From contig CAVQKP010000018.1 of assembly GCA_963713065.1 (NCBI GenBank), forward strand, positions 95,684 to 159,683: DNA of 64,000 nt, in the 5' to 3' direction. The position numbers and the translations under genes were made by a program. Below, one piece after another: positions 2,537-60,385 of this stretch. The DNA is from Pirellulales bacterium (GTDB lineage: Bacteria; Planctomycetota; Planctomycetia; Pirellulales; Thermoguttaceae). The notes beneath the pieces were generated by a model that worked only from the letters and a program-made list of their open reading frames with translations, did not search any database and was not told where the DNA came from. Each line of letters begins with the position of its first letter. Within the stretch, counting starts at the first letter, position 1.

Positions 2537-3336
2537 ATGGACATCATCCGATCTCTCGACGATCCGCGCATCGCCGCTTACCGCAATTTGCCCGATCGGA
2601 CGTTGCGGGGGGAAGCATATTTCTTGCCGAGGGGCGGTTGCTTGCCCGGCGCTTGCTGGCGAGCCGCTACGACGTCGAATCGGTATTCGTAAGCACGGAC
2701 TGCTACGAGGAATTTCGCCGCTTGACGCCCGCCAATGTGCCGCTGTACGCGGCCGACGAACCGCTGCTGTTGAAAATCGTGGGTTTTCCTTTTCACCGCG
2801 GCGCGTTGGCCGTGGGACGTCGCGGCCTGCCGGCGACGCTCGACGCGCTGCTCGCTCCCGCCGAGGAGCTGCCGCGATTCCGTCTGGCCGTCTGTCCGGA
2901 AATCACCAAGCCGGAGAATATGGGCTTGATCTTCCGCAACGCGGCCGCTTTCGGTTTCAACGGCGTCCTGCTGGGCGAGCGGTGCTGCGATCCGTTCTCC
3001 CGCCGCGCGATGCGCGTTTCGATGGGGGCCGTGCTGCAAGTGCCATTCTGCAAAGCCGGAAATTTACTGGAATCGCTGCAAAACCTCAAACAGCGCCGCG
3101 GCTTCCTCCTTTATGCGGCCATTCTCGACGCCGGCGCCGAAAAGCTGCACGAAATCGCCTGGCCTTCGCGCTGCGGCATTCTCTTGGGCAACGAGATGGA
3201 CGGCCTCGACGCCGCCTCGCTCGCGCTTTGCGACCACCGCGTGACGATCCCCATTACCGATCAAGTCGATTCGCTCAACCTCGGCGTGGCCGCGGGGATT
3301 TTCATGTTCGCGATGCAACACGACAGTTTAAAATGA
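2537..3336 (+). CDS. TrmH/SpoU family RNA 2'-O-methyltransferase
   Basis: N-terminus 'MDIIRSLDDPRIAAYRNLPDRTLRGEAY' in one frame continues as 'FLAEGRLLARRLLASRYDVESVF...' in the next; the shift is at the TTT run near 2618-2622. SpoU motifs 'GNEMDGL', 'IPITDQVDSLNLGVAAGI'. Confidence 0.8.
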
Positions 3337-3445: not shown

Positions 3446-6400
3446 ACGTTCCGGCGTTCCAAGCCTCAACGCTGAGACCGTCGGATTCATTGACCTCGAT
3501 GGCCGTGGTTTCGCCCGGATCGAGCCACAGATAGTTGCGATCGGCGAAAAACGTGTCGAGATGGCCTTTACGGAGGACGCGGACGCCCACGGCGGGCACG
3601 GAACCGCGATTGAAGATGTGAAGCTTGTTACCGGTTATACTCGATTCAAGTTTCGTGCGCGGCAATTGGAAAAGGCAATCCTTAACGGCCGAGAAGTTGA
3701 TTGCATAATCGTTTCGCACGACGAGAACGCCGTCATGGAGGACATCCGTCACGACCATCAAGGGCGAAGATTCGGTCTGCTCGGCAGTTAAGCTGAAATC
3801 ACCTAAACGCATGCCTTGTTTGACCGATCCGCGGCCGGGAAAACGTTTTTCTGCGATTTGCTTGAGCTCGGCATCGTAGGCGCGAACGCGGACTTCCCAA
3901 TTGGCCTCTTTTAAAGCATCGGCGTCGTCCAGCAGATACATCGGCAGAGTAAGCGGCTCACCTTGCACGTCAAGTTTATTGAACAGGGCCACCGCCAAGA
4001 GCGGCGTGAAACTTTTTTGGATCAAATAGTGTGAAATCTTCGGCGCGCCGTACCAGTCCACGGTGGACCACGAGGCGGCCGGGCAATTGTCGTTGAGTTT
4101 ATAGTACAACGCGCCCGTCGATTCGGGCCAGCGCGACCGGGCGCGCTCCAACATATGCCGCACACCAACGCTTTGCGCAAGCTGCGTGCCCGCGATGAAA
4201 CGCTCCATGGTATCGCTCGCGGTGAAATAACGCGACATGCGAGTGAGCCGGTCGAGGTCCCGCGACGTATTGAAAATCGGCGTGTGATAGGCGAAAGTCT
4301 TGTCGGCAGGCGGCGGCCAAAGCTTCTGTTCCTCGTCCGGCATGAATCGCAGCACCGATTCGTAGTCGGGATAGGAGGCGATGCCGGACTCGCCGAAGAA
4401 GATTGAATGAATAACGAACGAGCGGTCGAGCGGTGCGCCGCCCCAATAAACGTCGTAATTGTGCTCGCTGCCGCCGCAAGGCTCGCCTCGGTGGAAGTCG
4501 CGAGTGCCATCGAGTTCGATCGTCAGGCGACCCATCATATCGATGGCCGGGCCAAACGGATCGCCCGATTCGTTTCCGCCGGTATAGATTGCGAGAGAAG
4601 CGCGGCTCCGCAGCCGCAGAATATTCTCGCGAACGGTTTGTTCGAGTAAATTATATGGCTGCGTCTTGTGGGAATCCCAGGCGGTGGGCCATTCCTGCAT
4701 GACCATGATGCCCTTGTGATCGCAGAGATCGTAAAACTCTTCGGTTTCGACCATCCCCGCGCCCGAGCGCGGACCATCTGACAATGCTGACTGGCGGCGA
4801 GCGTCAACAGGCGATCGTAACGCTCGCGCGAGAAATCCATCATGGCGTCACAAGTACACCAGCCCGCTCCTTTGACGAACGTTGGGCGGCCGTTGATGAT
4901 GAATGTCCAATCGTAACAGGCTGGATCCACGCGGCCGTTGACCGGGGCCATGTGAATCGTGCGGATGCCGAAAGTCAGTTCTTCGACGTCCGGCGTTTTC
5001 CCGCCGTCGGGCGTGAACGCGAGTTGGAGCCGGTAGAGGTTCGGCTTGCCCAAATCGACCGGCCACCAAAGTTGCGGATTCGGAATGTCGAACTGCAAGT
5101 GCAATTCCTTGTTTGTTTCGGCGGACTGCACGGAGGATTCAAAATGATAAACCCTGCCGGAGAAATTGTCGGGCGCGATCGTGCCGACGAGTTTTCCCGA
5201 CCAACCGCCTTTTGGACCGGACAAGTTCACGACGAGATCCACCGTGCCCGTTTGCGCGTCGCGTGTGGCAACAAAGGGATTTTGCACGGCCACCGTCGGT
5301 TCGCCACGCAATTCGACCGATCGCCAGATGCCCAGCGGGGGAAATTTCGAGTAGTGCCAGCCGTAGCTGTTGTTGAAAACAACCGTTCTGGCCCACGGCA
5401 ACGCGGGATCGAGTTTCACAATATAGCGTGTTTTTCTCCCGCAACAGGCCTTCCACGGGCAACTCGATGCGTGTGAACATGCCTTCGTGCTTTCCCAGCT
5501 CCTTTCCGTTCAACCAGATGGTGCAGCGATTGCAGACGCCGTGGAAGACGAGAGTTTGAGCTCGCCCTTTCGGCGGACGAGCGAATGTTTTTCTATACCA
5601 ATAGGTTTTCGCGCTCCATTCTCTGGCGATTTCCTGGTTGCGGCCGAAATAAGGAAACGGAATCACGCCGGCTTGATAGAGCGCGGTGTGGACACTGCCC
5701 GGCACGGTGGCGCGAATGGCATCTGACCAATCGCCCGCAAGCCGTTTGTCGGCCTCGCCGCCTTCGAGCAGTTGCCAAGCGCCGTCGAGCGGGAAAACAG
5801 GCGTTTTGGGCGGAATATCGACCGGCAAATCTTGCAGCGAAACGCGCTCGGCCTTCGAATCCAGCGGCGCGGGACCGGACTGGTAGCTTCGGCGATCCAG
5901 TTCGCTGAGCGACAACCTTTCAATCTTGCTTATCGCATTGGCATTCGATGACGCATCGGCAAATGCATCGGCTCCTTCAACGAAATCAAAATTCCAAAGC
6001 CCGATGGTCTCGGGGTCCGCTTTGAAGGGCACCTCGGGAATGCCTTGAATTTTTCGAGCGACTTTGGAAATTCGCAATTCGTCGATGACGCCGTCACAGC
6101 CAAACAATGCCGTCGCGCCAACGCTGAGTTTGCCGGACTTGACCGTTCCCTTTGCATTTTTTTCGATAAGCGCGTTGACCACCTCGCGGCCATCGGCATA
6201 CAGCGCCACCTGGGCATCGTCCACGACCATCGCCACGTAGTGCCACTGTTTGTCGGCAATCGCAACTTTCGACTTGATGATCGAGGGTTTGACGCCGGGA
6301 ATATAGGCGCTGAGCGTGCCCGAACCGGCCTCGGTGTAGATTTCCCAATGGTCGAACGATTCCTTGGGTTCGTTGGCCACCAGGATATTGTACCGATCGT

Positions 6401-6638: not shown

Positions 6639-6960
6639 AGTAGGGTTCCTTGCACATGAAGGGTTCGACAAACCGCGGTAACGACAACTATTCAAAACAG
6701 GTGGTCTGCATGAAGATGGCAGTGCAGGTCTATTGCCTTCTGCCGGAAAATCGACAATTGAATAACCGTTTTCGGTTTCGCGCCTGCACAACCATATTTG
6801 CGGTGAAAGTCATTTTAGTGGCGAAGATGGTCTATTGGCAAGGATTTTCAAGAGGTGGCCTGGCTAGCCCTAACAATATTTCGCCCCCCGGCACTACCTG
6901 GTGTCCCCCTGCCGGCTTGGCTTTTTATATGCATTTGCTTAAATAAGCCTAAAAAGATAA

Positions 6961-6990
6961 GGAACACTAATAACCACTGATATCCACTGA
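6961..6990 (+). repeat. Copy of short repeat family D (GGAACACTAATAACCACTGATATCCAC), ending at the ATG of the downstream ORF
   Basis: Related copies at 3343-3371 (reverse orientation), 48106-48136 and 48166-48184 (reverse); 19-20-mers with 1-2 mismatches. Confidence 0.45.
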
Positions 6991-7607
6991 TGATTTATGC
7001 TCATAGTATTCAGGATCGAGAATTTATGCTCAACTTTAATAGATGCCGAATGCTTTGGCTGCTTGCTGTCTTTTGTGGATGGTCTGCCATATCCGCCGAA
7101 GCGAAAACGCTCGATGTCGGCGAGGGAAAACCTTTTGATCGCATCGAAAAGGCCAACGCCGTTGCACAGTCCGGCGACGTGATTCTTGTTTACGCGTTGA
7201 AAAACGGACGAGCATACGAGAAAACCTCCGTTTTCGTGCGGCAGAAAAATCTCACGTTATGTGGCGCGCCCGGCAAGGGAAAAATGCGGGTCCTGATTTC
7301 CGGCGAGGGATTCGATTACAGCGGCCGCGGCAGCACGCCCCGGGCGATCTTTCAATTCAACCGCGGCGCCGACGGCTGCAAACTCGAAGGTTTCGAGCTA
7401 TTCGGCGCGCACAACGAGAGCCACAACGGCGCGGGCATGCGGATCAACCAGGCCAACGGCGACGCGAAACAAGGGTACCAGCAAATAGCAGCCGTCCGCG
7501 GCGGAGCGCAAATGCGGAACCTACAAATGCGGAGCCTAACCGGCCGGCAGAACTGGTTCGCCGGCGATCGACCAGTAAGGAAAAACGCGCGAACGCGAAA
7601 AAACTAA
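6990..7607 (+). CDS. Secreted protein with DUF1565/right-handed beta-helix-like N-terminus; possibly truncated or frameshifted at its 3' end
   Basis: Signal peptide 'MLWLLAVFCGWSAISAEA' (a start at 7027 is possible). 'AQSGDVILVYALKNGRAYEKTSVFVRQKNLTLCG' resembles the N-terminal module of pectin-lyase-fold proteins. The tail (QMRNLQMRSLTG) is low complexity with an 18-bp direct repeat. Confidence 0.45.
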   Translation: MIYAHSIQDREFMLNFNRCRMLWLLAVFCGWSAISAEAKTLDVGEGKPFDRIEKANAVAQSGDVILVYALKNGRAYEKTSVFVRQKNLTLCGAPGKGKMRVLISGEGFDYSGRGSTPRAIFQFNRGADGCKLEGFELFGAHNESHNGAGMRINQANGDAKQGYQQIAAVRGGAQMRNLQMRSLTGRQNWFAGDRPVRKNARTRKN

Positions 7608-15366: not shown

Positions 15367-16797
15367 TTAAACATTCTTCTCTTCCCCTGCCGGCGGCTCT
15401 TCGGTCGCCGGTTGATCCGGTCCGGCTGTCGCTTCCGCCGGTTGATCCGGTCCGGCTGTCGCTTCCGCCGGTTGATCCGATTCGGCTGTCGCTTCCGCCG
15501 GTTGGTCCGATTCGGCTGTCGCTTCCGCCGGTTTGCCGTTCGACTTGTCGGCGCCGGCCAGATACTCCGGCGTGCCTTCATCGACGTTCTCGGCGGCGGC
15601 CAAACGATCGGCCTCGCGCTGTTTCCTGCGCTGCTCGGCGGCGGCGGCTTCGGCTTCCTCGGCCTTGGCTTCGGCCTGTTCGACGATCCGATCGACCACC
15701 TCTTGCGCGAGACTGCCCATTTCCATCAGGGCGTCGGGCTCGATCACCGACAGGTCATCATAACTCGAAAAGCCTTCGCCCACCAGCTTTTCGGCCAACT
15801 CGGGCTCGACGCCCTCGAGCGACGAGAAGCCCATCACGGCCTGCTCGATCTGCTCGTCCAACTCCTCGCGGGTCATGATCTCGATATCCCAGCCGCAAAG
15901 CTTGCTGGCCAGCCGCACATTCTGTCCCCGACGGCCGATGGCCAGCGACAATTGATCTTCCTGCACCAACACGATCGCGCGGCCCAACATCTGGCAGAGG
16001 ATCACTTCTTCGGTCGTGGCCGGCTGCAGGGCGTTGGGAATCAACACCTGCATGTCCTCGCTCCAACGAACGATGTCGATCCGTTCGCCGCCCAATTCAT
16101 CCACGATATTTTTGATGCGGTTTCCGCGCACGCCGACGCAGGCGCCGACGCAATCGACCCGCTGATCGGTGCTCGCGACGGCGACTTTCGTGCGATACCC
16201 CGGCTCGCGGGAGATGGCGCGGATTTCGATGACGCTCTCGGCGATTTCGGGAATCTCTTGCTCGAACAAACGTTGCACCAGGTGCGGCTTGGTGCGGCTT
16301 AAAATCACTCGCACGCGGCTGCCCTGCTTCTTGACTTCATAAACGGTTGCCCGCACGCGCTCGTTGGCATGGTGGGTTTCGCCGGGGATTTGCTCGCTTT
16401 TGGGTAAAATCGCCTCGACATTTCCCAAAGCCACGGTTGCCGCCCCCCCCTCATAACGCTGCACCACGCCCGTAATCAGTTGACCGATCTGTTCCACGTA
16501 TTCATTATACAACTGGTCGCGTTCGGCCTCACGGATCTTCTGGATCATCACCTGCTTGGCGGTCTGCGCACCAATGCGTTCGACCATCTCCGCGGGATCC
16601 ATCGGTTCGCCGTTCAACGAACCGCTGATCTTCCCGTCTTGGCGGTCGATCTTCACGGTAATCTCGGCTTGTTCTCCGTAGTGCTTCTTGGCGGCGGAAA
16701 TAATCGCCGCTTCGATCCCCTCGAAGACAATTTCCTTGTTGATATTTTTTTCGCGATGAATCGCATCCACGATGCGAAGGATTTCTTTGGAATCCAT
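15367..16797 (-). CDS. nusA: Transcription termination/antitermination factor NusA with a repetitive acidic C-terminal extension
   Basis: 476 aa: S1, KH and AR domains, then a C-terminal '[10 protein letters not shown]' x4 repeat region. Confidence 0.9.
15407..15526. repeat. 4 x 30-bp tandem direct repeat (GCCGGTTGATCCGGTCCGGCTGTCGCTTCC) inside the 3' end of nusA
   Basis: Read directly from the sequence; encodes the [20 protein letters not shown] repeats. Confidence 0.8.
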
Positions 16798-24945: not shown

Positions 24946-26957
24946 ATGGCAATTCGATCCGCTAGTTTCGTAACCCTTGTCTCGATCACCGCAGCCTTGG
25001 TCTGCCCGTCCGATCGGTTGTTGCCGACGTGCGCTGCCGAGGAAAATCCGTCGGCCGCGAGCGCGATGCCGCTCGTCTTGCCGGATCAGACAAATCCCGA
25101 AATCAAAAACGTCCAAAACCGGCTCTATCGGCTGGTCATGCATCAAGCGCTTTACGTATTGACTTTGGTGCATCCCTGGCAGGAAGACGCGCGCCTGAAG
25201 CTTACCACGCAAAGCAAGAGCGTGGAGCACTTCATTCGCCCCAACACGGGCGCAATCGCCACCTTCGCCTTTCTTTATCGCTTCGGTCCCTACGACGAGA
25301 AGTTCGTCGGCGTCAGCCGCGCAGAGCTGCTGAAAGATTACATTCTCCCGATGATGCGCTATATCGCCGCCACGCACGTCACGGGCACCCGCAACACCGG
25401 CGACGGCAAACGATGGGGCAACCAGTGGCAATCGGCCTATTGGGCGAGCATGCTCGGGCGTTCGGCGTGGTGGATTTGGGACGACTTGCCTGCCGACTTG
25501 CGCGGGGAAGTCCGCCGCATGGTCGCCTACGAAGCGCAACGTTTCATCGATAAAAAACCGCCCCATAAACTGGTGGGCGACACCAAGGCCGAAGAAAACG
25601 CCTGGAACAGCACGATCTTCGACGTCGCCGTTTTGCTGATGCCCGCCGATCCGCGGCGTCCCGTCTGGGAGAAGGAATTCCAACGCTGGGCGATGTCATC
25701 GTACCTCCGGCCCGCCGACGAGCATGCGTCGAAAATCGTCGATGGCCGCCCGGTATCGGAGCAATTCTCCGGCGCGAACCTGTACGACGATTTCACGCTC
25801 GAAAATCACCGCATCGTGCATCCCGATTACATGGGATGCTTCACGTTGACCTTGTCCTGCGCCATCGATTACGCCTTGACGGGCCGTCGCCCTCCGGAAG
25901 CGATCTTTTATAACGTTCCCGAAGTTTACGAGAATCTCAAGTGGTTCTTCCTTCCCGACGGCGGCTGCGTCTATCCCAACGGCGAAGATTGGGAGCTATT
26001 CAACAACGTCTTCGATTGGTCGGAAGCGCATATCCTGATGGCGGTCTTTGCCGGCGACGCCGACGGCTGGTCGCTCGCGGAAAAATGCCTTGCCACGGGC
26101 GAAAAAATGCAAGCCCGCGCTCCCCGCGGCTCGATCTACGAGAAAGTGGAGCTCGTTTACGGCGGTGCGCCGCAATTGACCGGCGAAATGATGGCCCGCG
26201 AATGGTTGGCATTGCAAACGGCCAGGCAGATCGTCAACCGCCCGCAACCGCCGCGGGGAGTCAAGCGGCTCGATATCGGCAAAATCATTCTGCACCGCAC
26301 AACAAAGGCGATCCACACGCTGAGTTGGGGGCCGGTCGTGATGGCGCAGTGCGTGCCCTGGCGGATGGATCGCGTGGTCTCGCCCGACCAGCGCGACGGC
26401 GTCGGCGAGATCCGCTTGAAAAATGAGCAGAAAATCCTGCCGGTCAAGCTGGTTTCGGCGGACGTCAAGGATGCGGCGGACGGATTCACCGCCGACTTGA
26501 TCCTCGACCATGGCGACGCCGTCCGCGCGGAATTGCATTTCCAATCCAACGCCGACGGCTCGTTCATCATCGGCGAAAAACTCACCGCGCTCCGCGAAAT
26601 GACGACTTCCGAAATCGGCACGGGACTGATCGGCATTTTGAACGATCCGCTGTGGGTTTATGAAACGCACCGCCGGAAAATCACCTTCGGCGGCGCAACC
26701 GCCGAAGTCCCCGCGCTCAGCGGAAAGACCGTGGAGACCGCGGCGCGCGGCGGATCGACGTCGATGGCGCGTTGGCGATCGAGAGCGCCGCGCCGCTTTC
26801 CGCCCGCTACCTGGGCGCGGCGAAAATCGACCGCGGCCGCGCCACCGACAAACTCTATCTCAACTACCTCGGCGGCGAGCGCGCCTGGAAAAGCGGGCAA
26901 GTCATCTCCACCTTCAAAGCCGCCATCACGCCGCAAGTCGAACCGTCAAAGGATTGA
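24946..26957 (+). CDS. Secreted hypothetical protein, Trp-rich, possibly an alpha/alpha-toroid polysaccharide-degrading enzyme; one frameshift near 26.75 kb
   Basis: Signal peptide 'MAIRSASFVTLVSITAALVC'. 'GNQWQSAYWASMLGRSAWWIWDDL'. The C-terminus continues in frame 26772-26957 (…AAKIDRGRATDKLYLNYLGGE…). Confidence 0.5.
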
Positions 26958-26987
26958 TTCACAACCGTCGTGAAAAACGAATTTCAC

Positions 26988-27090
26988 GCCGCCATGCGCG
27001 GTGCCATGCATGGTGCCATGCCCAAGCTTGTCATGGGCATGTAGGGACTTCCCGCAGGATCTCATGCCCACGACAAGCGTGGGCATGACA
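26988..27090. repeat. REP-like palindromic element cluster (family A). Contains 2x GGTGCCATGC, hairpin CATGCCCA-agcttgtca-TGGGCATG, and the 25-mer CATGCCCACGACAAGCGTGGGCATG
   Basis: The identical 25-mer plus 2x GCATGGCACC recurs at 35574-35618 in the opposite relative orientation. Confidence 0.6.
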
Positions 27091-27222
27091 CCCTCGAATC
27101 TCAATCTTCGATCTTATCCGCCCTTGACCGAATCCCTACTATTCCAGTAGCCTAATCCGATTCTTTTCGGCGACGGCGGAACTATGCGCCACGCCGCCTG
27201 GGGAAAACTGTAGGAGAACTGC

Positions 27223-28665
27223 ATGAAAGTTTGCGATAATCCGCTTCCGCTGCGCATCGGTTTGTTCGGCATCGGTTTGGAGGCCTATTGGGCGCAATTT
27301 CCCGGCTTGAAGGAGCGTCTCGAAGGCTATCTGAGCCGCGTCGCCGAAAAGCTGCATTTGCCGGGCGTGCGCGTCACGAACCTCGGGTTGATCGACACGC
27401 CCGAGATGGCCGCCGCGGCCGGGCACCGCTTCCGGCAATCCGACGTCGATCTCATCTTCCTGCATGTCACCACTTACGCCCTGTCGTCCACCGTGCTGCC
27501 GGTCGTCCGCCGCGCGAAAGTGCCGGTAATCCTGTTGAACCTTTCGCCCGATCCTGCCATCGACTACGCCGCGTTCAACAGACTGGGCGACCGCCGCGCG
27601 ATGACCGGCGAGTGGCTGGCGCATTGTGCGGCCTGTCCGGTGCCGGAAATAGCCAACGTATTCCGCCGCGCCGGCATCCCGTTCCATCAAGTCACGGGCA
27701 TGCTCGACGACGACCCGCCCTGTTGGAACGAAGTGACCGATTGGATCGACGCCGCCCGGGTCGCGCAGCTCATGGAGCGCAATCGCTTAGGCGTGATGGG
27801 CCACTACTACGGCGGAATGCTCGATATCTACAGCGACCTGACGCAACACGCGGCCACTTTCGGCGGGCATATCGAAATCGTCGAAGTCGATGAACTCAGC
27901 GCGCTCAGGGCCGAAGTTACCGCCGGCGAAATCCGCGACCGCGTTGCCAACTTCCGCGAAATCTTCGACGTTCAAGAGGATTGCTCTCCAGCAGAACTCG
28001 ACCGCGCCGCGCGAACTTCCGTCGCCCTGGACCGCCTGGTCGAACGACATAAACTCGGTTCGCTGGCCTATTACTACATGGGCACGGGCAATCCGGCCAA
28101 CGAAGACGCTATTAGCTCGATCATCCTCGGCAACAGCCTGCTTACCGCGCGCGGTGTGCCGGTGGCCGGCGAAATGGAGATCAAAAACGTGCAGGCGATG
28201 AAGATCATGGACGGCTTTCAGGCGGGCGGATCGTTCACCGAATACTACGCGTTGGACTACCAGGACGATGTGGTGCTGATGGGCCACGACGGCCCGGGCC
28301 ATATCGCCATCGCCGAGGGAAAGCCGCGCGTTCGCCCGCTGACGGTCTATCACGGCAAGGTCGGCCGCGGGCTGTCGGTGGAAATGTCGGTCCAGCACGG
28401 CCCCGTCACGCTGCTTTCCGTCGTGGAAACCGCTGCGGGGCGTTTGCAGTTTCTCGTCGCCGAAGGCGAATCGGCGCCGGGCCCGATTTTGGAGATCGGC
28501 AACACCAACAGCCGCTACCGCTTCGCCGGCGGCGCGCGGCGATTCGTGCAGGAATGGAACGCCCACGGCCCCGCCCACCACTGCGCCGTCGGCGTGGGCC
28601 GCCTGGCGGACAAAATCGCCAAACTCGGCAGCCTGCTGGCGATGGAAGTCAGCCGCGTGTGTTGA
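27223..28665 (+). CDS. L-arabinose/L-fucose isomerase family protein
   Basis: 480 aa, intact. 'RIGLFGIGLEAYWAQFPGL...', Mn-site-like 'MGHDGPGHIA', and the C-terminal beta-rich domain are typical of the AraA/FucI-like family. Confidence 0.7.
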   Translation: MKVCDNPLPLRIGLFGIGLEAYWAQFPGLKERLEGYLSRVAEKLHLPGVRVTNLGLIDTPEMAAAAGHRFRQSDVDLIFLHVTTYALSSTVLPVVRRAKVPVILLNLSPDPAIDYAAFNRLGDRRAMTGEWLAHCAACPVPEIANVFRRAGIPFHQVTGMLDDDPPCWNEVTDWIDAARVAQLMERNRLGVMGHYYGGMLDIYSDLTQHAATFGGHIEIVEVDELSALRAEVTAGEIRDRVANFREIFDVQEDCSPAELDRAARTSVALDRLVERHKLGSLAYYYMGTGNPANEDAISSIILGNSLLTARGVPVAGEMEIKNVQAMKIMDGFQAGGSFTEYYALDYQDDVVLMGHDGPGHIAIAEGKPRVRPLTVYHGKVGRGLSVEMSVQHGPVTLLSVVETAAGRLQFLVAEGESAPGPILEIGNTNSRYRFAGGARRFVQEWNAHGPAHHCAVGVGRLADKIAKLGSLLAMEVSRVC

Positions 28666-29925: not shown

Positions 29926-29935
29926 GATAGAGAAA

Positions 29936-30050
29936 GAGTTCAGGGTTCGGGGAAGAGGGTTCGGGGTTCAGGGAAGAGAGGGTTCAGGGAGCAGGAAGCG
30001 GGATTTATTTCGTTTCAATCCTGAACCCTGAACCCTCTTCCCTGAAACCT
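29936..30050. repeat. 115-bp imperfect palindrome built from GGGTTCA/TGAACCC heptamer units. Lies 4 nt downstream of the stop of the HEAT lipoprotein gene and 10 nt upstream of the cyclase gene start; likely a terminator or regulatory hairpin
   Basis: Left arm ...GGGTTCGGGGTTCAGGGAAGAGAGGGTTCAGGGA..., right arm ...TCCTGAACCCTGAACCCTCTTCCCTGAAACC. The same heptamer occurs at 31247-31290. Confidence 0.5.
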
Positions 30051-30744: not shown

Positions 30745-31246
30745 ATTGATAACTGGCAGTTGCCGTTTTTTAAGTGAATTTCAAGGAGGATACGTAAGTC
30801 GATAAGTTCAATTTTCGAGGAGCTTGGACGAATACAAGGTATGGCGATTATTCATAGCCGGATGTTCGCAGCACCGGTTTAGCCGGCAAACGTTCCAGTC
30901 CCAATTCAGCCTGCCATGGCACCGACTTTAGCCCGAAGGCGGAACAAGGAATTCAGCCATTTTGATCCTCGATCGTCTATTAACCCAAACAGAGATAATC
31001 GAGGCGGGACTATACCATCGGCGTCCATTCCCGCCAAGATGAATCATTAGCAAAACTGCGATAAAATGGTAAAACTAGGTGTCAGGGGCAAGGAAATTTT
31101 CGGCAAGCTAGTGTCTCTTTGTCCTTGGCGGCGAAAAATGCCGCAATATTTGTCCATACTTCCATCACACAATGCCACCCGTTATGATGCTGATTGCATG
31201 GTACGCAGTGCATTCCCTTTTGGATCATGACTAAACTTATCCTCAT

Positions 31247-31290
31247 CTGAACCCTGAACCCTACAACCTGAATCCTGAACCCTAAACCCT
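31247..31290. repeat. TGAACCC heptamer repeats in the 5' leader of the SPFH gene
   Basis: ctgaaccctgaaccctacaacctgaatcctgaaccctaaaccct, about 20 nt before ATG 31310. Confidence 0.5.
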
Positions 31291-31309
31291 TTTCCCAACG
31301 AGGCCAATC

Positions 31310-32692: not shown

Positions 32693-32791
32693 CAAATAAC
32701 CAAATTGTTCCCAGGATCTGCTTGGGAACGCCCTGTTCAGGAGACTCATTTCGCCGCACTGCGAAAAAAGTTTGAAAAGAGAGTAAATGAC

Positions 32792-34060
32792 ATGGACAAA
32801 CTAATACTCGAAAACGTCCGCTGTTTCAAAGGCCGCCATGAAATCCCGCTCGCCCCGCTGACGCTGTTAATTGGCGAAAACAGCACGGGTAAATCAACCT
32901 TATTGTCGGCGATTAGATTGGCTTGGGATATTCGACTTGGAAATCCTTTTCCTGATTTTAACGAAGTACCCTTCGACTGGGGGGCATTCGAACAGGTTTC
33001 TCATCTGGAAGGGAAAAATGGTGATAAACAAAAACAATTTAATATTGGTTTCGAAGAACGAATCGTTGCGCCGTCCGGATCGCAGTGTAATTTTGATATC
33101 GAAGCGATATTTAGACCTCATGGTTCGCAACCTGTAATAGATGAATGGCGGATTTTATACGATTCCATACAAATCCAAGCGTGCATTATCGATCAAAATA
33201 AATTCAATATTCGATTGGAAAAAAACGGCCAACGAGATGAAACTATTTATAATGAAGGATCTATAGGAACTGGATTCTTGGCCTTGGCTACCATTGCAAC
33301 TTTTCTGAGGAAATCAAAGATTTTAACTAAGGAAGAGAGCACGAGTTTTGGGGATATGATTCATCAAAACTGGTTGAGAAGGCTCAATAATCGGCCAAAT
33401 GCCGTCGCACCGATTCGCACAAAACCTAAAAGAACCTACGATAGGTTAAGAGAAACACCAAGTCCCGAAGGCGACCATATTCCCATGGTTTTGGCAAGGA
33501 TTCGATCTTCGGAACCGGAATCTTGGGAAACTCTTACTGAAGAATTGACCTTTTTTGGAAAGTCCAGCGGTTTGTTTTCCGGAGTCGAAATAAAACTGCT
33601 AGGCTCTGAAAGCGATCCTTTTCAAGTACAAATTCTGATCGAAAACGTCAAAGTCAATCTCATTGATGTAGGCTATGGGATTAGTCAAATTCTCCCAATC
33701 ATTGTCGATAGTGTTCTTGCCGAAGAAGGCCAAACTCTTCTCATGCAACAACCTGAAGTCCACCTTCATCCCAAAGCACAAGCAGCGCTAGGAAGTTTCT
33801 TTGGTGCCTTGGTTAGTTATAAAAAGCAAATGATTATAGAGACCCATAGCGACTATCTGATCGACCGCATCCGAGCAGATGTTCGGGATGGCAAAAATAA
33901 TCTTGAACCCAAGGACGTCATTCTGCTTTACTTTGAGCGAAAAGGTGCAGCAGTGCAAATTCATCCTATCGAATTGGATTCGGCGGGAAATTTGATCAAT
34001 GTTCCGTCAGGTTATCGGCAATTCTTTCTCGAAGAAACAGAGCGAATTTTGGGGGGGTAG
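32792..34060 (+). CDS. AAA_21/ABC-type ATPase (AAA_15/AAA_21 core with a DUF3696-like C-terminus), defence-system-type ATPase; sits on a low-GC island
   Basis: Walker A 'LLIGENSTGKSTLLSAI', Walker B/D-loop 'LLMQQPEVHLHP', H-loop 'IETHSDYLIDRIRA'. GC is clearly lower than the flanks (about 40-45% by eye). Confidence 0.8.
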   Translation: MDKLILENVRCFKGRHEIPLAPLTLLIGENSTGKSTLLSAIRLAWDIRLGNPFPDFNEVPFDWGAFEQVSHLEGKNGDKQKQFNIGFEERIVAPSGSQCNFDIEAIFRPHGSQPVIDEWRILYDSIQIQACIIDQNKFNIRLEKNGQRDETIYNEGSIGTGFLALATIATFLRKSKILTKEESTSFGDMIHQNWLRRLNNRPNAVAPIRTKPKRTYDRLRETPSPEGDHIPMVLARIRSSEPESWETLTEELTFFGKSSGLFSGVEIKLLGSESDPFQVQILIENVKVNLIDVGYGISQILPIIVDSVLAEEGQTLLMQQPEVHLHPKAQAALGSFFGALVSYKKQMIIETHSDYLIDRIRADVRDGKNNLEPKDVILLYFERKGAAVQIHPIELDSAGNLINVPSGYRQFFLEETERILGG

Positions 34061-34553: not shown

Positions 34554-36182
34554 GTGGATTCCCGCACGCTCTCCCTGCTTCTGAACACTCTTTATCTCGC
34601 TGCAGCGACCTGTGTCGTTAGCGTGCCGTTGGGAATTCTATTGGCGGGCCTGCTTTGGCGGACCGATTATCCGGGGCGGAATTTTTGGCGGGCGGTTCTG
34701 GCGGGGATGCTTTTCGTGCCGCTGTTCCTGCAAACGGCGGCCTGGCAGGCGGGATTCGGTTTGCAGGGGTGGTTTACTTTGACATTCCAATCGCCGGCAC
34801 TGGTGGACGGCTGGCGGGGGGCGATTTGGATTCACAGCATGGCCGCTCTGCCGTGGGTGGTTTTGATTGTGGGGCTGGGGCTGCGGCGGAGCGAACCGGA
34901 GTTGGAAGAAGCGGCCTTGTTGGATGCCTCGCCGGGAAAAGTTTTTTTCCACGTGACGCTGAAAAACGCGCTGCCGGCCATCGGCGCGGCCGTGCTCTGG
35001 GTGGCGGTCACCACCGCGGGCGAAATGACCGTCACCGATTTCTTCGGCATCCGCACCTATGCCGAAGAACTCTACACCCAAATCGCCATCGGCCAGGAGC
35101 CGGGCGTGCCGCCCCCTTCGGTCCTCCTGGGCGTCGCCCTGACGGTCGTGCTGATACTCGGCGGCGTGAAATTGCTGAGCCTTTTCATCCCCCGCGAACG
35201 ATCGCTTACCATTTCGCCAAGCCTGACATTTCCGCTGGGCCGCTGGCGCTGGCCGGTTGTTTTCATAACCGGTTTGTTTTTACTGCTTATGCTCGGCGTG
35301 CCGCTGGGCAGCTTGATCTACAAGGCCGGCGTCGAAGTCGGCAAAACCGCAACCGGCTATGAGCGCAGTTTTTCGATCGGCAAGTGTTTGACGATGATTG
35401 TTCGCGCGCCGGAGGATTTTTCCAGAGAATTCGAATGGTCGCTCTCGATCGGCGCCGTTTCGGCAACGACCGCGGTGGTCCTGGGAACTTTACTGGCATG
35501 GTGGAGCCGAACTTCATCCGGCGCCCGGCCCAAGGTTGACGCGGACGGGAGAAAAACTTCGAACACACCGCAACATGCCCACGACAAGCGTGGGCATGGC
35601 ACCCGGCATGGCACCGGGAAGTATTTTTTCAATTTTCAATATGCAATTTGCAACCGCCAATTTGCGATCCTCCTTGTCATCGCCGTCCTTTTTTCCCTGC
35701 CCGGCCCGGTACTGAGCCTGATCGTCATCCACCTGCTCAACCGGCCCGAAGCACCGCCGCTCTGCTGGCTTTACGATCATACGATTCTCGCGCCGGCGTT
35801 AGTGTCGATCTTCAAAGGCCTTCCGGCCACGACGCTGGTGATGTGGTACGCCATGCAATCGATTCCGCGCGAGATATTGGAAAGCGCAACGGTCGATGGG
35901 GCCGGATCGTGGGCGCTGCTATTTCGCATCGCCTTGCCCATGCGCTGGCCGGCGGCCGTCGCGGCGTGGCTGATCGCCCTGGCTCTTTCGCTGGGCGATC
36001 TGGCGGCCAGCATTCTCGTCGTGCCGCCGGGCGTGAGCACCCTCTCGATCTCGATTTTCAGCCTCTTGCACTACGGCGTGGAAGATCGCGTGGCCGGCGT
36101 CTGTCTGGCGCTGCTGATGATCTTCGCCGGCCTGGCGTGGGCCACGCTTCTGGTCGCTCGCCGCATGGTAAAATCGCGATAA
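34554..36182 (+). CDS. ABC transporter permease, two-domain fused type (FbpB/ThiP-like)
   Basis: 542 aa, 2x six-TM permease halves with 'EAA'-type loops. The cytoplasmic linker carries an in-frame REP-like insertion (QHAHDKRGHGTRHGTGK). Confidence 0.8.
   Translation: MDSRTLSLLLNTLYLAAATCVVSVPLGILLAGLLWRTDYPGRNFWRAVLAGMLFVPLFLQTAAWQAGFGLQGWFTLTFQSPALVDGWRGAIWIHSMAALPWVVLIVGLGLRRSEPELEEAALLDASPGKVFFHVTLKNALPAIGAAVLWVAVTTAGEMTVTDFFGIRTYAEELYTQIAIGQEPGVPPPSVLLGVALTVVLILGGVKLLSLFIPRERSLTISPSLTFPLGRWRWPVVFITGLFLLLMLGVPLGSLIYKAGVEVGKTATGYERSFSIGKCLTMIVRAPEDFSREFEWSLSIGAVSATTAVVLGTLLAWWSRTSSGARPKVDADGRKTSNTPQHAHDKRGHGTRHGTGKYFFNFQYAICNRQFAILLVIAVLFSLPGPVLSLIVIHLLNRPEAPPLCWLYDHTILAPALVSIFKGLPATTLVMWYAMQSIPREILESATVDGAGSWALLFRIALPMRWPAAVAAWLIALALSLGDLAASILVVPPGVSTLSISIFSLLHYGVEDRVAGVCLALLMIFAGLAWATLLVARRMVKSR
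35574..35618. repeat. REP-like element copy (family A): CATGCCCACGACAAGCGTGGGCATG + 2x GCATGGCACC, inserted in-frame (15 codons) in the permease inter-domain linker
   Basis: The 25-mer is identical to 27063-27087. 35574 is codon-aligned with the permease frame. Confidence 0.6.
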
Positions 36183-48027: not shown

Positions 48028-48059
48028 ATGCCCTCACCCCGGCCCCTCTCCCAAAGGGA
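48028..48059. repeat. Repeat family C copy (ATGCCCTCACCCCGGCCCCTCTCCCAAAGGG) just downstream of the MmeI-like gene
   Basis: Near-identical at 49238-49276. A diverged copy at 55656-55700 lies inside a CDS. Confidence 0.5.
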
Positions 48060-48105
48060 AAGAAGAGTTTTATAGGGCCAAACCATGCGTCACCATATTA
48101 TTTAA

Positions 48106-48184
48106 GGAACACTAATCTCCACTAACACCCACTCACAAATCTTTATTGTGCCTATTAGCGGCTGTCAGTGGTTATTAGCGTTCC
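48106..48184. repeat. Imperfect inverted repeat of family D (GGAACACTAATCTCCACTA ... CAGTGGTTATTAGCGTTCC), about 40-bp spacer; MITE-like or regulatory palindrome between convergent genes
   Basis: The right arm's reverse complement GGAACGCTAATAACCACTG matches 6961-6979 with 1 mismatch. Confidence 0.45.
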
Positions 48185-48220
48185 TTCTGTTTTCGAATCC
48201 GACGAACTTTCGAAGTCGCA

Positions 48221-49177: not shown

Positions 49178-49276
49178 TGCGACGCCGGAGCAAAAGCGAA
49201 ATTGTGTTCCCATGCCGGAGCATGGGAACAAATAGAAATGCCCTCACCCCTAGCCCCTCTCCCAAAGGGCGAGGGG
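49178..49276. repeat. Composite repeat: family B (TGCGACGCCGGAGCAAAAGCGAAATTGTGTTCCCATGCCGGAGCATGGGAACA, 49178-49230) followed by family C (49238-49276)
   Basis: The family B paralog is at 56815-56865, about 85% identical. Both contain GTTCCCAYG-ccggagc-RTGGGAAC hairpins. Confidence 0.55.
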
Positions 49277-49283
49277 AAAATAT

Positions 49284-54923: not shown

Positions 54924-56611
54924 CTATTGCCCTGTAGCTCGAACATCAAGAATTCGCCCGGTGGGGCGGCTGCGGTCGAGAGGGACTGCTTGGGGAGAGT
55001 CGTAGATCGCGTGGTTGCCGGCTTCATCGACAACTTCGAGGCGGAGATAGACCAGCGGGGGAATCGAACTGTCGAGCGACCAAATGTAACGGCCGGTGTT
55101 TTCCAGGTTCGAGGCGAAAGGCGTAAATTGGCCGCCGGGTTGGGCACTATAGGAGAGCGTGACCGGCTTTTCGGCGAGCATCTTGTCGGAGACTTCCCAA
55201 CCGATAACCAGCTTGTCCTCGTTTTCGCCGCTGCCGAATTCGGCCGAGGTGATTTTTGCCGCGGGCCGAGTCAGGTCGATGCCGATCCAGACCGACGGTT
55301 TGTCGCCGCTTTTGGGAGGAGGATCGCCCAGGCCGGCGCCGCTGGTGACAACGATCCGGAAACCGTACATTCCTTCCTCCTCGACGCGCACCGACATTGG
55401 GCTGCGGTTATCGCTATCGATGCCGTAACTCCGCCAGGTGCGGCCGCCGTCCCGAGTGCCGAACAACTCGACCTTGCTCACGCCCGACGGGCCGACGGAT
55501 TGCAGGTCATAATCCAACTCGAAACTCCGGGAGTTGACCATCTGCGGTTTTTCATTGGGAGGAAGGTAGGCCAGGAAGGGATTGTTCAGCAATGCGGAAG
55601 CCACGTCCGACGAATACTTGCTGCCGATTTTCGGATTCGCGCCGGCCGAGACGGCCCTCACCCCCGGTCCCTCTCCCTTCGAGAAAGGGGAGTCCTGTTT
55701 CGCCGCATCTTTCGCAAAATCGGCTGATGTGCTTCCAGTGGGGCCGAGTTTGACTTGGGCATGGGCGATGCCCTTGTTGCCGGCCTTGTCGCTCGCTTCG
55801 GCGCGGATGACGACCTCCCGCGCGCCTGCGCCGGCCGCCAGGTGGCCTCGCCGGATTGCGTGGTTTCGGTGTTCGTGAGATCCTTGTCGCTCACGGCGAC
55901 CGGTTGCCACGCCCCAAAGTCCGACGTGCGATATTGCAGCGAGAGCGAATCCGGCTTCAGATGCGGATCGAAGATTTGCCATTGTGCGGTGACCTGCCCG
56001 CCAGGCCCGGACTCGGCCGATAGCAGCACGCTGGGCGGTTTCGTGTCGATGATTACGATCACCGCCGGGCTGGAAACGGTCGGCGGCTGAAACTTGCCGG
56101 CCCGATCGAGCGTGCGCGTGGCGAACCAGTATTCGCCGTCGTTGGCCGCACGGAAGGGAATCCGCGGCTGATTGGCGTTCACCCGGCTGTAGAAGTTCCA
56201 GTTCGCACCGCGATCGTGCGAAACGAACATCTGCACTTCGACAATCGAGCTGCTGTTCCGCGGGTTATTTTGCGGTGACGCCTCGCTGCGGACGGGAAGG
56301 GAAAAATATGTTTGCCGCGTGAGCATCCCCTTCGGCAGGGCAGGGACCGAGCCGGCGCCGGAATCCGTTGCCTGGTTTTGCGCGGGCGGAAGATTGTTCG
56401 CCGGCGGTTGAGAATCGCGGATTACCGGTCTGAGATTGACCGCCGCAGGAGCGTTCTCGGTGGCGGCCCGGTCGGTCGCCTCCTCGGCGGCCGGTTTCCA
56501 AGCCGGCTGGACGATCGTCTCGGGCGTATTAACGGTGTTTTGCGGCGCGTTCAGTTCGAGCTGCCCGCTCGACATCATCATCAGCCACGAAGCAACAACC
56601 GCCGGCCACAT
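54924..56611 (-). CDS. Secreted protein with two tandem Ig-like/beta-sandwich repeat modules (one frameshift near 55.7-55.9 kb); carries a family-C repeat in-frame
   Basis: Signal 'MWPAVVASWLMMMSSGQL'. Two homologous modules (…DRGANWNFYSRVNANQ…DTKPP… and …TRDGGRTWRSYGIDSD…DLTRP…). 'FSKGEGPGVRA' is encoded by the repeat at 55656-55700. Confidence 0.5.
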
Positions 56612-60108: not shown

Positions 60109-60385
60109 CTTTTTTCCCCTCGCGGGCACCGCCCGAAGGTTGGTTGGGAGAGGGGCCGGGGCGAGCGATTTCTTGCCATTCACCAATTGCCGCTCGGCTT
60201 CCTCCCCGTGCCGACGAACTTTCCCTTCGTCAAACTTGATGACCTCCCCGAACTCATGCACTTCACGCCACGGTTTGTTTCGCCCTTAAAATTTCCACTG
60301 CACGGAATCTTCCTCTTCATCCTTCTCAATCAAGAGAAAATGCAAGTTGTTCCCTTTATTCCTCTGAATTATCTATCGCTCAACC

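Follow-up and report, generated by a model that had tools for sequence, protein, structure and literature searches.

A probable REP/REPIN-RAYT repeat family of Planctomycetota with one doublet behind a stop codon and a presumed second one in frame inside an ABC permease gene

The closest described relatives of the repeat reported here are the REP/REPIN-RAYT systems, such as the REP/BIME elements of E. coli with TnpA-REP, the REPINs of Pseudomonas and the GTAG-tagged REPs (Di Nocera et al. 2013, PMC3733652). Like these, the planctomycete family has as its unit a short hairpin that carries a conserved unpaired foot on one of its ends; doublets are mostly head-to-head with the feet pointing outward, sites are found after stop codons, one Y1/HUH-class transposase gene lies between inverted copies (a layout called REPtron), the stem co-varies with the transposase and there is no target-site duplication. 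Di Nocera et al. described such 'HH dimers' as the prevalent REP form, found REPs within ORFs in several species, both as single units and as dimers, and listed two REP families, GTAG-20 and GTAG-21, as well as many tyrosine transposases for Rhodopirellula baltica (PMC3733652). Examples of REPs, REPINs, REPtrons and intragenic REPs thus exist already, also from a planctomycete. However, the foot of the present family is GGGTGCC, which is neither GT[AG]G nor GYAG, GYRG, GTRG, GTMG or GTGG, and the family differs from GTAG-20 and GTAG-21 in the peptides that it encodes (PMC3733652). Furthermore, many REP families are species- or genus-specific, whereas the planctomycete 30-mer is common to many species of several families.

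Two other known systems are comparable in part. As with in-frame REPs and the Rickettsia palindromic elements (RPEs), a functional protein here tolerates a palindrome as additional residues, placed where its surface or a linker is permissive; in contrast to those cases the host is the loop of a membrane permease, and the same loop holds other repeat families in other orthologs. RPEs are longer, about 100–150 bp, and to our knowledge no RAYT has been assigned to them. The transposase of the family resembles the TnpA enzymes of IS200/IS605 (Y1 HUH) in its HUH (HVH) and tyrosine motifs and in a weak match to Pfam Y1_Tnp, and a mechanism on single-stranded hairpins would be expected. Unlike TnpA, it passes a RAYT equivalog model and not an IS model, short REPs instead of IS ends lie on both sides of its gene, and the repeats far outnumber the gene.

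We analyzed a stretch of 64,000 nt, referred to as the window in the following. The exact 25-mer CATGCCCACGACAAGCGTGGGCATG, which an earlier sequence-only reading had reported at two sites, is present at both (27063–27087 and 35574–35598); shuffling the window 100 times with dinucleotides preserved gave no match. The minus strand holds a third copy, with 2 mismatches, at 27017–27041. The repeat unit comprises ~32 nt, A-CATGCCCACG-RCRAG-CGTGGGCATG-GCACCC, and folds into a hairpin with a 10-bp stem and a 5-nt loop (CATGCCCACG/ACAAG/CGTGGGCATG), replacing the 9-bp stem and 7-nt loop proposed before. The hairpin is followed by an unpaired GGCACCC tail, which on the other strand reads as the foot 5′-GGGTGCC with a GTGC core. 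For the intragenic unit a folding energy of −28.2 kcal/mol (z = −3.4) was calculated. Read directly from the sequence, the 30-mer has no stop in any of its six frames. Exact copies of the decamer GCATGGCACC are found on the minus strand at 27000–27009 and 27012–27021 and on the plus strand at 35594–35603 and 35606–35615. Two decamers had been thought to flank each 25-mer: there are indeed two exact decamers per locus, but the intergenic pair belongs to the left, minus-strand arm, and the intergenic exact 25-mer is followed by one decamer, GCATGACACC, with 1 mismatch. The longest inverted repeat of the whole window (44 nt, 91%) is formed by the two loci, 26999–27042 versus 35573–35616. Three REP units are visible in the window, in which no further hairpins with a GGGTGCC-type foot were found. 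A search of the whole window against Rfam 15 yielded nothing at gathering score; the sub-threshold matches were hairpin-shaped miRNA models only.

The intergenic locus follows an ORF of 675 aa without Pfam match (24946–26973, plus strand, TGA stop at 26971–26973), with 26 nt between the stop and the repeat locus. From left to right it shows two reiterations of the 12-nt tail of the left arm, both read directly from the minus strand, of which the first is degenerate (GCCGCCATGCGC, 26988–26999; GGTGCCATGCAT, 27000–27011), then the left arm itself, a REP unit on the minus strand with 28/30 identity to the family consensus (CATGCCCATGACAAGCTTGGGCATGGCACC, 27012–27041), a spacer of 21 nt (TAGGGACTTCCCGCAGGATCT, 27042–27062) and the right arm on the plus strand (27063–27093), which consists of the exact 25-mer and the tail GACACCC with 1 foot mismatch. 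Folding of the whole doublet gave −62.3 kcal/mol (z = −5.8). The end of the doublet is 130 nt away from the start of a co-directional gene for a protein with a sugar-isomerase-like C-terminal domain (27223–28665, plus strand).

In order to determine the distribution of the repeat, a census was carried out with the pattern CATGCCCA-N9-TGGGCATGRCACC in one genome per bacterial or archaeal species, resulting in at least 112 stretches. The pattern was matched at least 143 times: 140 matches lie in 112 stretches (~40 genomes) and 3 are the units of the window. The pattern fixes 21 of the 30 bases and leaves the 9 central ones free, so that the search itself accounts for part of the conservation seen in stem and foot. 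Among the matches listed, 117 of 143 copies nevertheless have CGRCRAGCG at these central positions; C directly follows the 30-mer in 134 of 154 copies, and A directly precedes it in 101 of 153. Outside the unit the flanks are unrelated from site to site. The 30-mer is found at more than 140 sites in ~40 other genomes and in unrelated contexts. At least 40 Planctomycetota genomes carry it, and just one of the listed stretches lies outside this phylum; the others belong to Pirellulales, Thermoguttaceae, Planctomycetaceae, Gemmataceae and the complete Kolteria novifilia Pan216 genome, and several genomes contain 7–14 loci each among the matches listed. The lone match outside Planctomycetota (L107, CAZQRQ010000054.1) is found in a Rikenellaceae-labelled MAG next to a type-B-like REP partner and is probably a mis-binned contig. 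A phage-borne element was also considered and rejected, as only 3 matches were obtained in a viral collection of 2.9 million contigs.

Regarding the architecture of the sites, 33 of the 35 close pairs (<200 nt) among the matches listed have the orientation '-+' with the feet outward, 2 are tandem and none is '+-'. Spacers within doublets measure 11–26 nt with modes at 18, 20 and 23 nt, and many apparent singletons turned out to be heterodimers with a second REP type, GGTGCCATGGCCACGCTTGCGTGGCCATG. We found no target-site duplication at the 33 doublets, where direct-repeat lengths equal those of a shuffled control; this fits HUH single-strand transposition. Two larger arrangements were observed besides. 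Seven stretches (L025, L033, L046, L082, L088, L099 and L100) contain a MITE-like composite of ~150 nt, in which a type-B/type-A REP heterodimer is located inside 27-nt terminal inverted repeats (TAGAGCGCATCTCACTTGAGTGTAGCG ... CGCTACACTTATCTGAGAAGTGCTCTAG); its flanks are unrelated across genomes. In another stretch (L073) the 3′ part of a SurA/PpiC-like gene is present as a 595-bp tandem duplication whose junctions carry identical REP units (3065–3094 and 3660–3689), and this duplication may be REP-mediated.

A transposase gene between inverted copies was found in a Pirellulales MAG (L114). Two inverted units 620 bp apart enclose one ORF (2615–3205), with a minus-strand REP 22 nt upstream and a plus-strand REP 8 nt downstream. 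The encoded protein scores 89.9 bits with the NCBIfam model NF047646, 'REP-associated tyrosine transposase' (cut-off 80), and 19.8 bits with Pfam Y1_Tnp, which is below the cut-off of 23; the transposase motifs HVH (PEHVHIV) and Y-x-H-x-NP (YVHANP) are visible in the alignment. A tblastn search over the fetched DNA revealed a second such gene between repeats (L034), whose right REP bears a compensatory C>T / G>A change in the stem. No RAYT gene was detected by tblastn in the 64-kb window. A metagenome scan seeded with the L114 and L034 proteins gave 20 loci, the flanks of which were inspected. With 71% identity of the transposase the same REP is present on both sides (L115); at 63–70% a REP variant with a loop 2 nt shorter is found (L116–L120), at 52–54% the stem is CACGGCTGC...GCAGCCGTG (L123–L126), and at 41% (L132, L133) there is yet another stem. 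Despite the change of the stem, a foot of the GGGTGCC/GGCACCC type is kept at all these transposase loci. The same REPtron layout exists in the cultured Pirellulimonas nuda and, with a type-B stem, in Blastopirellula sediminis. In total, RAYT genes between inverted REPs were seen with this REP in L114, L034 and L115 and with variants in L116–L120, L123–L126, L139 and L140, in related genomes only. At E ≤ 1e-15 the transposase clade has 4,487 members, the majority of them named just 'transposase'. In the fetched DNA, perfect hairpins of ≥8 bp directly precede GCACC at 8% of the sites compared to ≤0.2% for permuted feet, an enrichment that is in part circular because the loci were picked for type A; more than 40 of these hairpins have stems other than type A.

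With at least 40 genomes, tail-out doublets and REP-associated tyrosine transposase genes flanked by the repeat, the original assignment to a REP-like mobile palindromic family, of which the repeated hairpin would be a genuine member, is supported. The family seems to be undescribed: it is absent from the catalogue in PMC3733652 and from the papers found by sequence search. A full-text literature search for the sequence strings of the repeat retrieved no paper, and literature on RAYT or REPIN in combination with Planctomycetes was limited to general REP papers. We consider it very probable that we are dealing with a Planctomycetota-specific REP/REPIN-RAYT family, of which one doublet lies after a stop codon and a further copy, read as a second doublet, in frame inside an ABC permease.

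Other explanations were weighed against this one. The hairpin could be a conserved cis-acting signal, e.g. an mRNA 3′-end stabiliser, a terminator or a protein-binding site, which is held by selection and is not mobile; the permease copy would then be coincidental or a functional RNA structure. REPs of E. coli have been co-opted for such cis-acting roles. A signal of this kind would agree with an identical 30-mer and a conserved loop across several planctomycete families, with a strongly stable structure and with an intergenic copy 26 nt past a stop codon between co-directional genes, and co-option of REPs is on record (PMC3733652). However, no terminator-like site was called on the plus strand at 26999–27093, where the tail is followed by CTCGAATCTCAAT and not by a T-run, and there is no match to an Rfam family. 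The copies inside genes occur in all reading frames and in unrelated contexts, the element is present in the permease studied here and absent at the syntenic ortholog, and the repeat is tightly linked to RAYT genes, its stem co-varying with the transposase. As an explanation for the family a cis-acting signal is thus improbable. A regulatory role at single loci is compatible with the REP-RAYT explanation and does not replace it; for example, it is plausible that the intergenic doublet acts as a 3′-end stabiliser of the upstream transcript.

We regard it as less probable still that a DDE transposase moves the element as a MITE via terminal inverted repeats, in which case it would not be a RAYT substrate. 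Doublets are inverted repeats by nature, and the ~150-nt composite with its 27-nt terminal inverted repeats around a REP heterodimer in other genomes would match this description. In contrast, the 33 doublets are devoid of target-site duplications, single units with an asymmetric foot are common and the repeat flanks Y1/HUH transposase genes at five independent loci, all of which argue against a MITE.

The intragenic copy resides in a gene for a two-domain ABC permease of the iron(III) type (542 aa, BPD_transp_1 twice; 34554–36182, plus strand), in whose frame the peptide HAHDKRGHGTRHGTG is read. The ORF is open and both halves are conserved, in agreement with the initial proposal of an element in frame inside a two-domain permease. 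The intact REP unit (35574–35604, plus strand) matches the consensus at 30/30 positions, carries C as its 31st base and encodes HAHDKRGHGT. It is followed by a reiteration of the tail, G plus GCATGGCACC (35605–35615, plus strand), and 35593–35604 together with 35605–35615 represent 1.9 copies of a 12-nt period. Among the matches listed, the tail is duplicated in 3 of 154 family copies, and 2 of these 3 are located in this window; this rarity suggests that both loci derive from one local subfamily. Upstream of the intact copy, at a distance of 24 nt (35550–35573) that falls inside the spacer range of the family (11–26 nt), there is a probable decayed left arm on the minus strand, GGCGCCCGGCCCAAGGTTGACGCGGACGGG (35520–35549). 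It shares 20/30 positions with the reverse-complement consensus (shuffle p about 1e-4), in a score-20 class of 115 positions, which at 23 offsets per 30-mer amounts to about five distinct 30-mers on the two strands of the window, the left arm included. A comparison of intragenic arm plus spacer with intergenic arm plus spacer gave p = 0.0026; the two spacers alone showed no significant similarity (p = 0.59).

On this basis we lean towards the view that a complete doublet was inserted and that its left arm has decayed. Alternatively, a single unit could have landed beside an older, unrelated loop sequence. Ten changes in one arm and none in the other would be odd for simple neutral decay, the left-arm call rests on 20/30 identity, and the spacer has no significant match to the intergenic spacer; these points speak against the decayed arm.

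The permease has 636 homologues. The closest of them (P0002, 510 aa) is about 80% identical in the alignment, and its gene lies on a syntenic JGI contig, where the genes are arranged as DacZ, HEAT, Band_7, permease, DUF1570. A DUF1570 gene next to the permease and the names given to the homologues point to Pirellulales-like Planctomycetota as the origin of the window. When the DNA of the syntenic ortholog (L001) was aligned, a clean gap of exactly 96 nt appeared at the insert site. The insert block (35520–35615) thus amounts to 32 codons, in frame and stop-free; the insert had previously been described as codon-aligned, which is correct, and as 45 bp or 15 codons, which is too short for the block that the closest ortholog lacks. 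The 32 residues are basic and disordered. In the 20-sequence alignment the loop measures about 8 residues in distant orthologs (ARRGGxxR) and up to 48 elsewhere, and the insert peptide was found in none of the 19 aligned orthologs. The ortholog alignment that had been proposed as a check therefore identifies a lineage-specific block, absent from P0002 and from all 19 orthologs, and an in-frame lineage-specific insertion that is tolerated as a peptide is supported. No function is implied for the peptide, and the biology of the permease is probably unaffected by it.

There is only a very slight chance that faulty assembly or binning produced the intragenic copy, for instance by collapsing repeats or joining them into a chimera in a metagenome-assembled genome. 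Short repeats can mislead assemblers, and the identical protein is on record from a single NCBI/ENA contig of 228,923 bp, but the block is exactly 96 nt long, in frame and stop-free, both of its flanks are collinear with orthologs, and equivalent in-frame copies are present in independent assemblies including long-read-sized contigs. That the linker peptide is ancestral to the permease and its DNA was copied to the intergenic region is refuted by ortholog alignment, 96-nt gap and family census and can practically be dismissed: the right arm is a perfect consensus copy, as such an origin would allow, but the peptide is absent in 19/19 aligned orthologs, the loop is hypervariable in length and content with no conserved linker residues, the gap in the closest ortholog is clean, and the 25-mer is not unique, its 30-mer occupying more than 140 sites in ~40 other genomes, mostly outside this gene.

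We located the insert in the protein with an AlphaFold2 model computed from the 20-sequence alignment (mean pLDDT 71). The output provides secondary structure and confidence and is silent on the membrane side, and simple hydropathy alone is insufficient for the topology. The insert covers residues 323–354. Residues 323–366 are predicted as coil with pLDDT <50 between a helix at 290–321 and helices at 361–381, so in the model the insert site is a disordered loop after the second helix of the second half. This does not agree with the linker between the two transmembrane halves, to which the insert had been assigned: the loop between the halves is at about residues 210–228 according to hydropathy and AlphaFold2, and the insert is inside the second half. 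The loop is presumably cytoplasmic, judging from the positive-inside rule (the short loop of insert-free orthologs is basic) and from the usual MalG-type topology.

The same region of the gene and its surroundings contain further repeats. Directly after the insert, inside the permease ORF, there is a 7-nt tandem (TTTGCAA)n with about 4 copies (35626–35653), which reads FNFQYAICNRQFAI in the window and is kept as FNLQFAICNLQFAI in many orthologs. In another ortholog (P0007, L135 3990–4035) this loop of the permease holds a palindrome of a different kind, GTTCCCAGACGGAGCCTGGGAAC; the generic pattern GTTCCC...GGGAAC has 6 matches in the window. In a third ortholog (P0004) the loop peptide GEGPGVRA equals a reading of a second palindromic repeat family of the window, GCCCTCACCCC...CCCTCTCCC (48029–48066, 49240–49277, 55654–55691 and 60144–60173), a match at the protein level alone. 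The contig of P0004 (JGI 3300075153) contains a gene for a 151-aa Y1_Tnp protein ~1.8 kb downstream of the permease. The slot between Band_7 and permease is variable: it is occupied by an AAA_15/AAA_21/DUF3696 ATPase in the window (32705–34060) versus an HGSNAT_cat gene in L001 (4731–5861), and the gene in this slot is possibly a defence gene. Elsewhere in the window, short repeats of the type CCCTGAACCCT are inverted on both sides of the HEAT-repeat gene (29933–30050 and 31243–31304), an AT-richer repeat, TAAGGAACACTAAT..CCACTGAT, has direct and inverted copies 41 kb apart (6952–6998 and 48103–48193), and a 30-nt tandem repeat with 5–6 copies, CGCCGGTTGATCCGGTCCGGCTGTCGCTTC, is probably coding (15376–15555).

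The permease is not the only gene with a copy in frame. We listed the open frames that span copies and scanned ten of them against Pfam. In a polyketide synthase (L052) the element at residue 1386 lies in one frame with KR (1076–1295) and adh_short (1747–1862), and in a GlpD-like oxidoreductase (L036) the element at 424 is in one frame with DAO (18–334) and DAO_C (446–503). A dynamin-like protein (L080) is read through the whole doublet, with a weak partial Dynamin_N match upstream only. Two orthologous TPR membrane proteins (L078 and L021) contain copies near the N-terminus and have Pfam matches downstream only. Four long frames over copies (L031, L068, L056 and L061) found no match in Pfam; as they are probably spurious and due to GC-rich DNA, they were not counted as intragenic insertions. 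Copies inside genes occur in all reading frames.

For the REP/REPIN-RAYT family we propose the following course of events. By analogy to TnpA-REP of E. coli and the IS200/IS605 enzymes, a single-copy HUH/Y1 tyrosine transposase (RAYT) would recognise the hairpin and its foot on single-stranded DNA, and it may cleave and rejoin the DNA in a way that copies or moves doublets. One doublet would have settled 26 nt past a stop codon between co-directional genes, the usual position of REPs. Another doublet, of 96 nt, would have entered the coding sequence of the ABC permease, where it could survive because its length is a multiple of three, none of the six frames has a stop and the loop tolerates changes in length. 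Its left arm would have decayed later, the right arm still being a perfect copy. In general, an insertion into a gene would be retained only where it keeps the reading frame, brings no stop and falls into a loop that tolerates it. Mobility is indicated indirectly, by the site that is empty in the syntenic ortholog and by the unrelated flanks at each copy.

The analysis describes an apparently undescribed REP family with a non-canonical foot that is tied to its transposase clade. Cultured strains in which foot recognition by the RAYT could be tested are available with Kolteria novifilia Pan216, Pirellulimonas nuda and Blastopirellula sediminis. Annotators are given a reason to treat planctomycete peptides such as HAHDKRGHGT, MPTxSVGMAP, GAMPTLxVGM and CPRQAWAWH as repeat-derived. 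As a more speculative idea, which we rate as possible though not as the likelier outcome, the repeats may belong to an ancient REPIN-RAYT lineage that is passed on vertically, has GGGTGCC as a foot of its own and is present throughout Pirellulales, Thermoguttaceae, Planctomycetaceae and relatives. This lineage would be a recurrent source of disordered inserts in loops and interdomain linkers, as in the permease, the polyketide synthase, GlpD, the dynamin-like protein and the TPR membrane proteins, and loops like that of the permease would be sinks in which unrelated repeat families gather independently. If this is true, planctomycetes would be a natural system for the remodelling of proteins by mobile palindromes.
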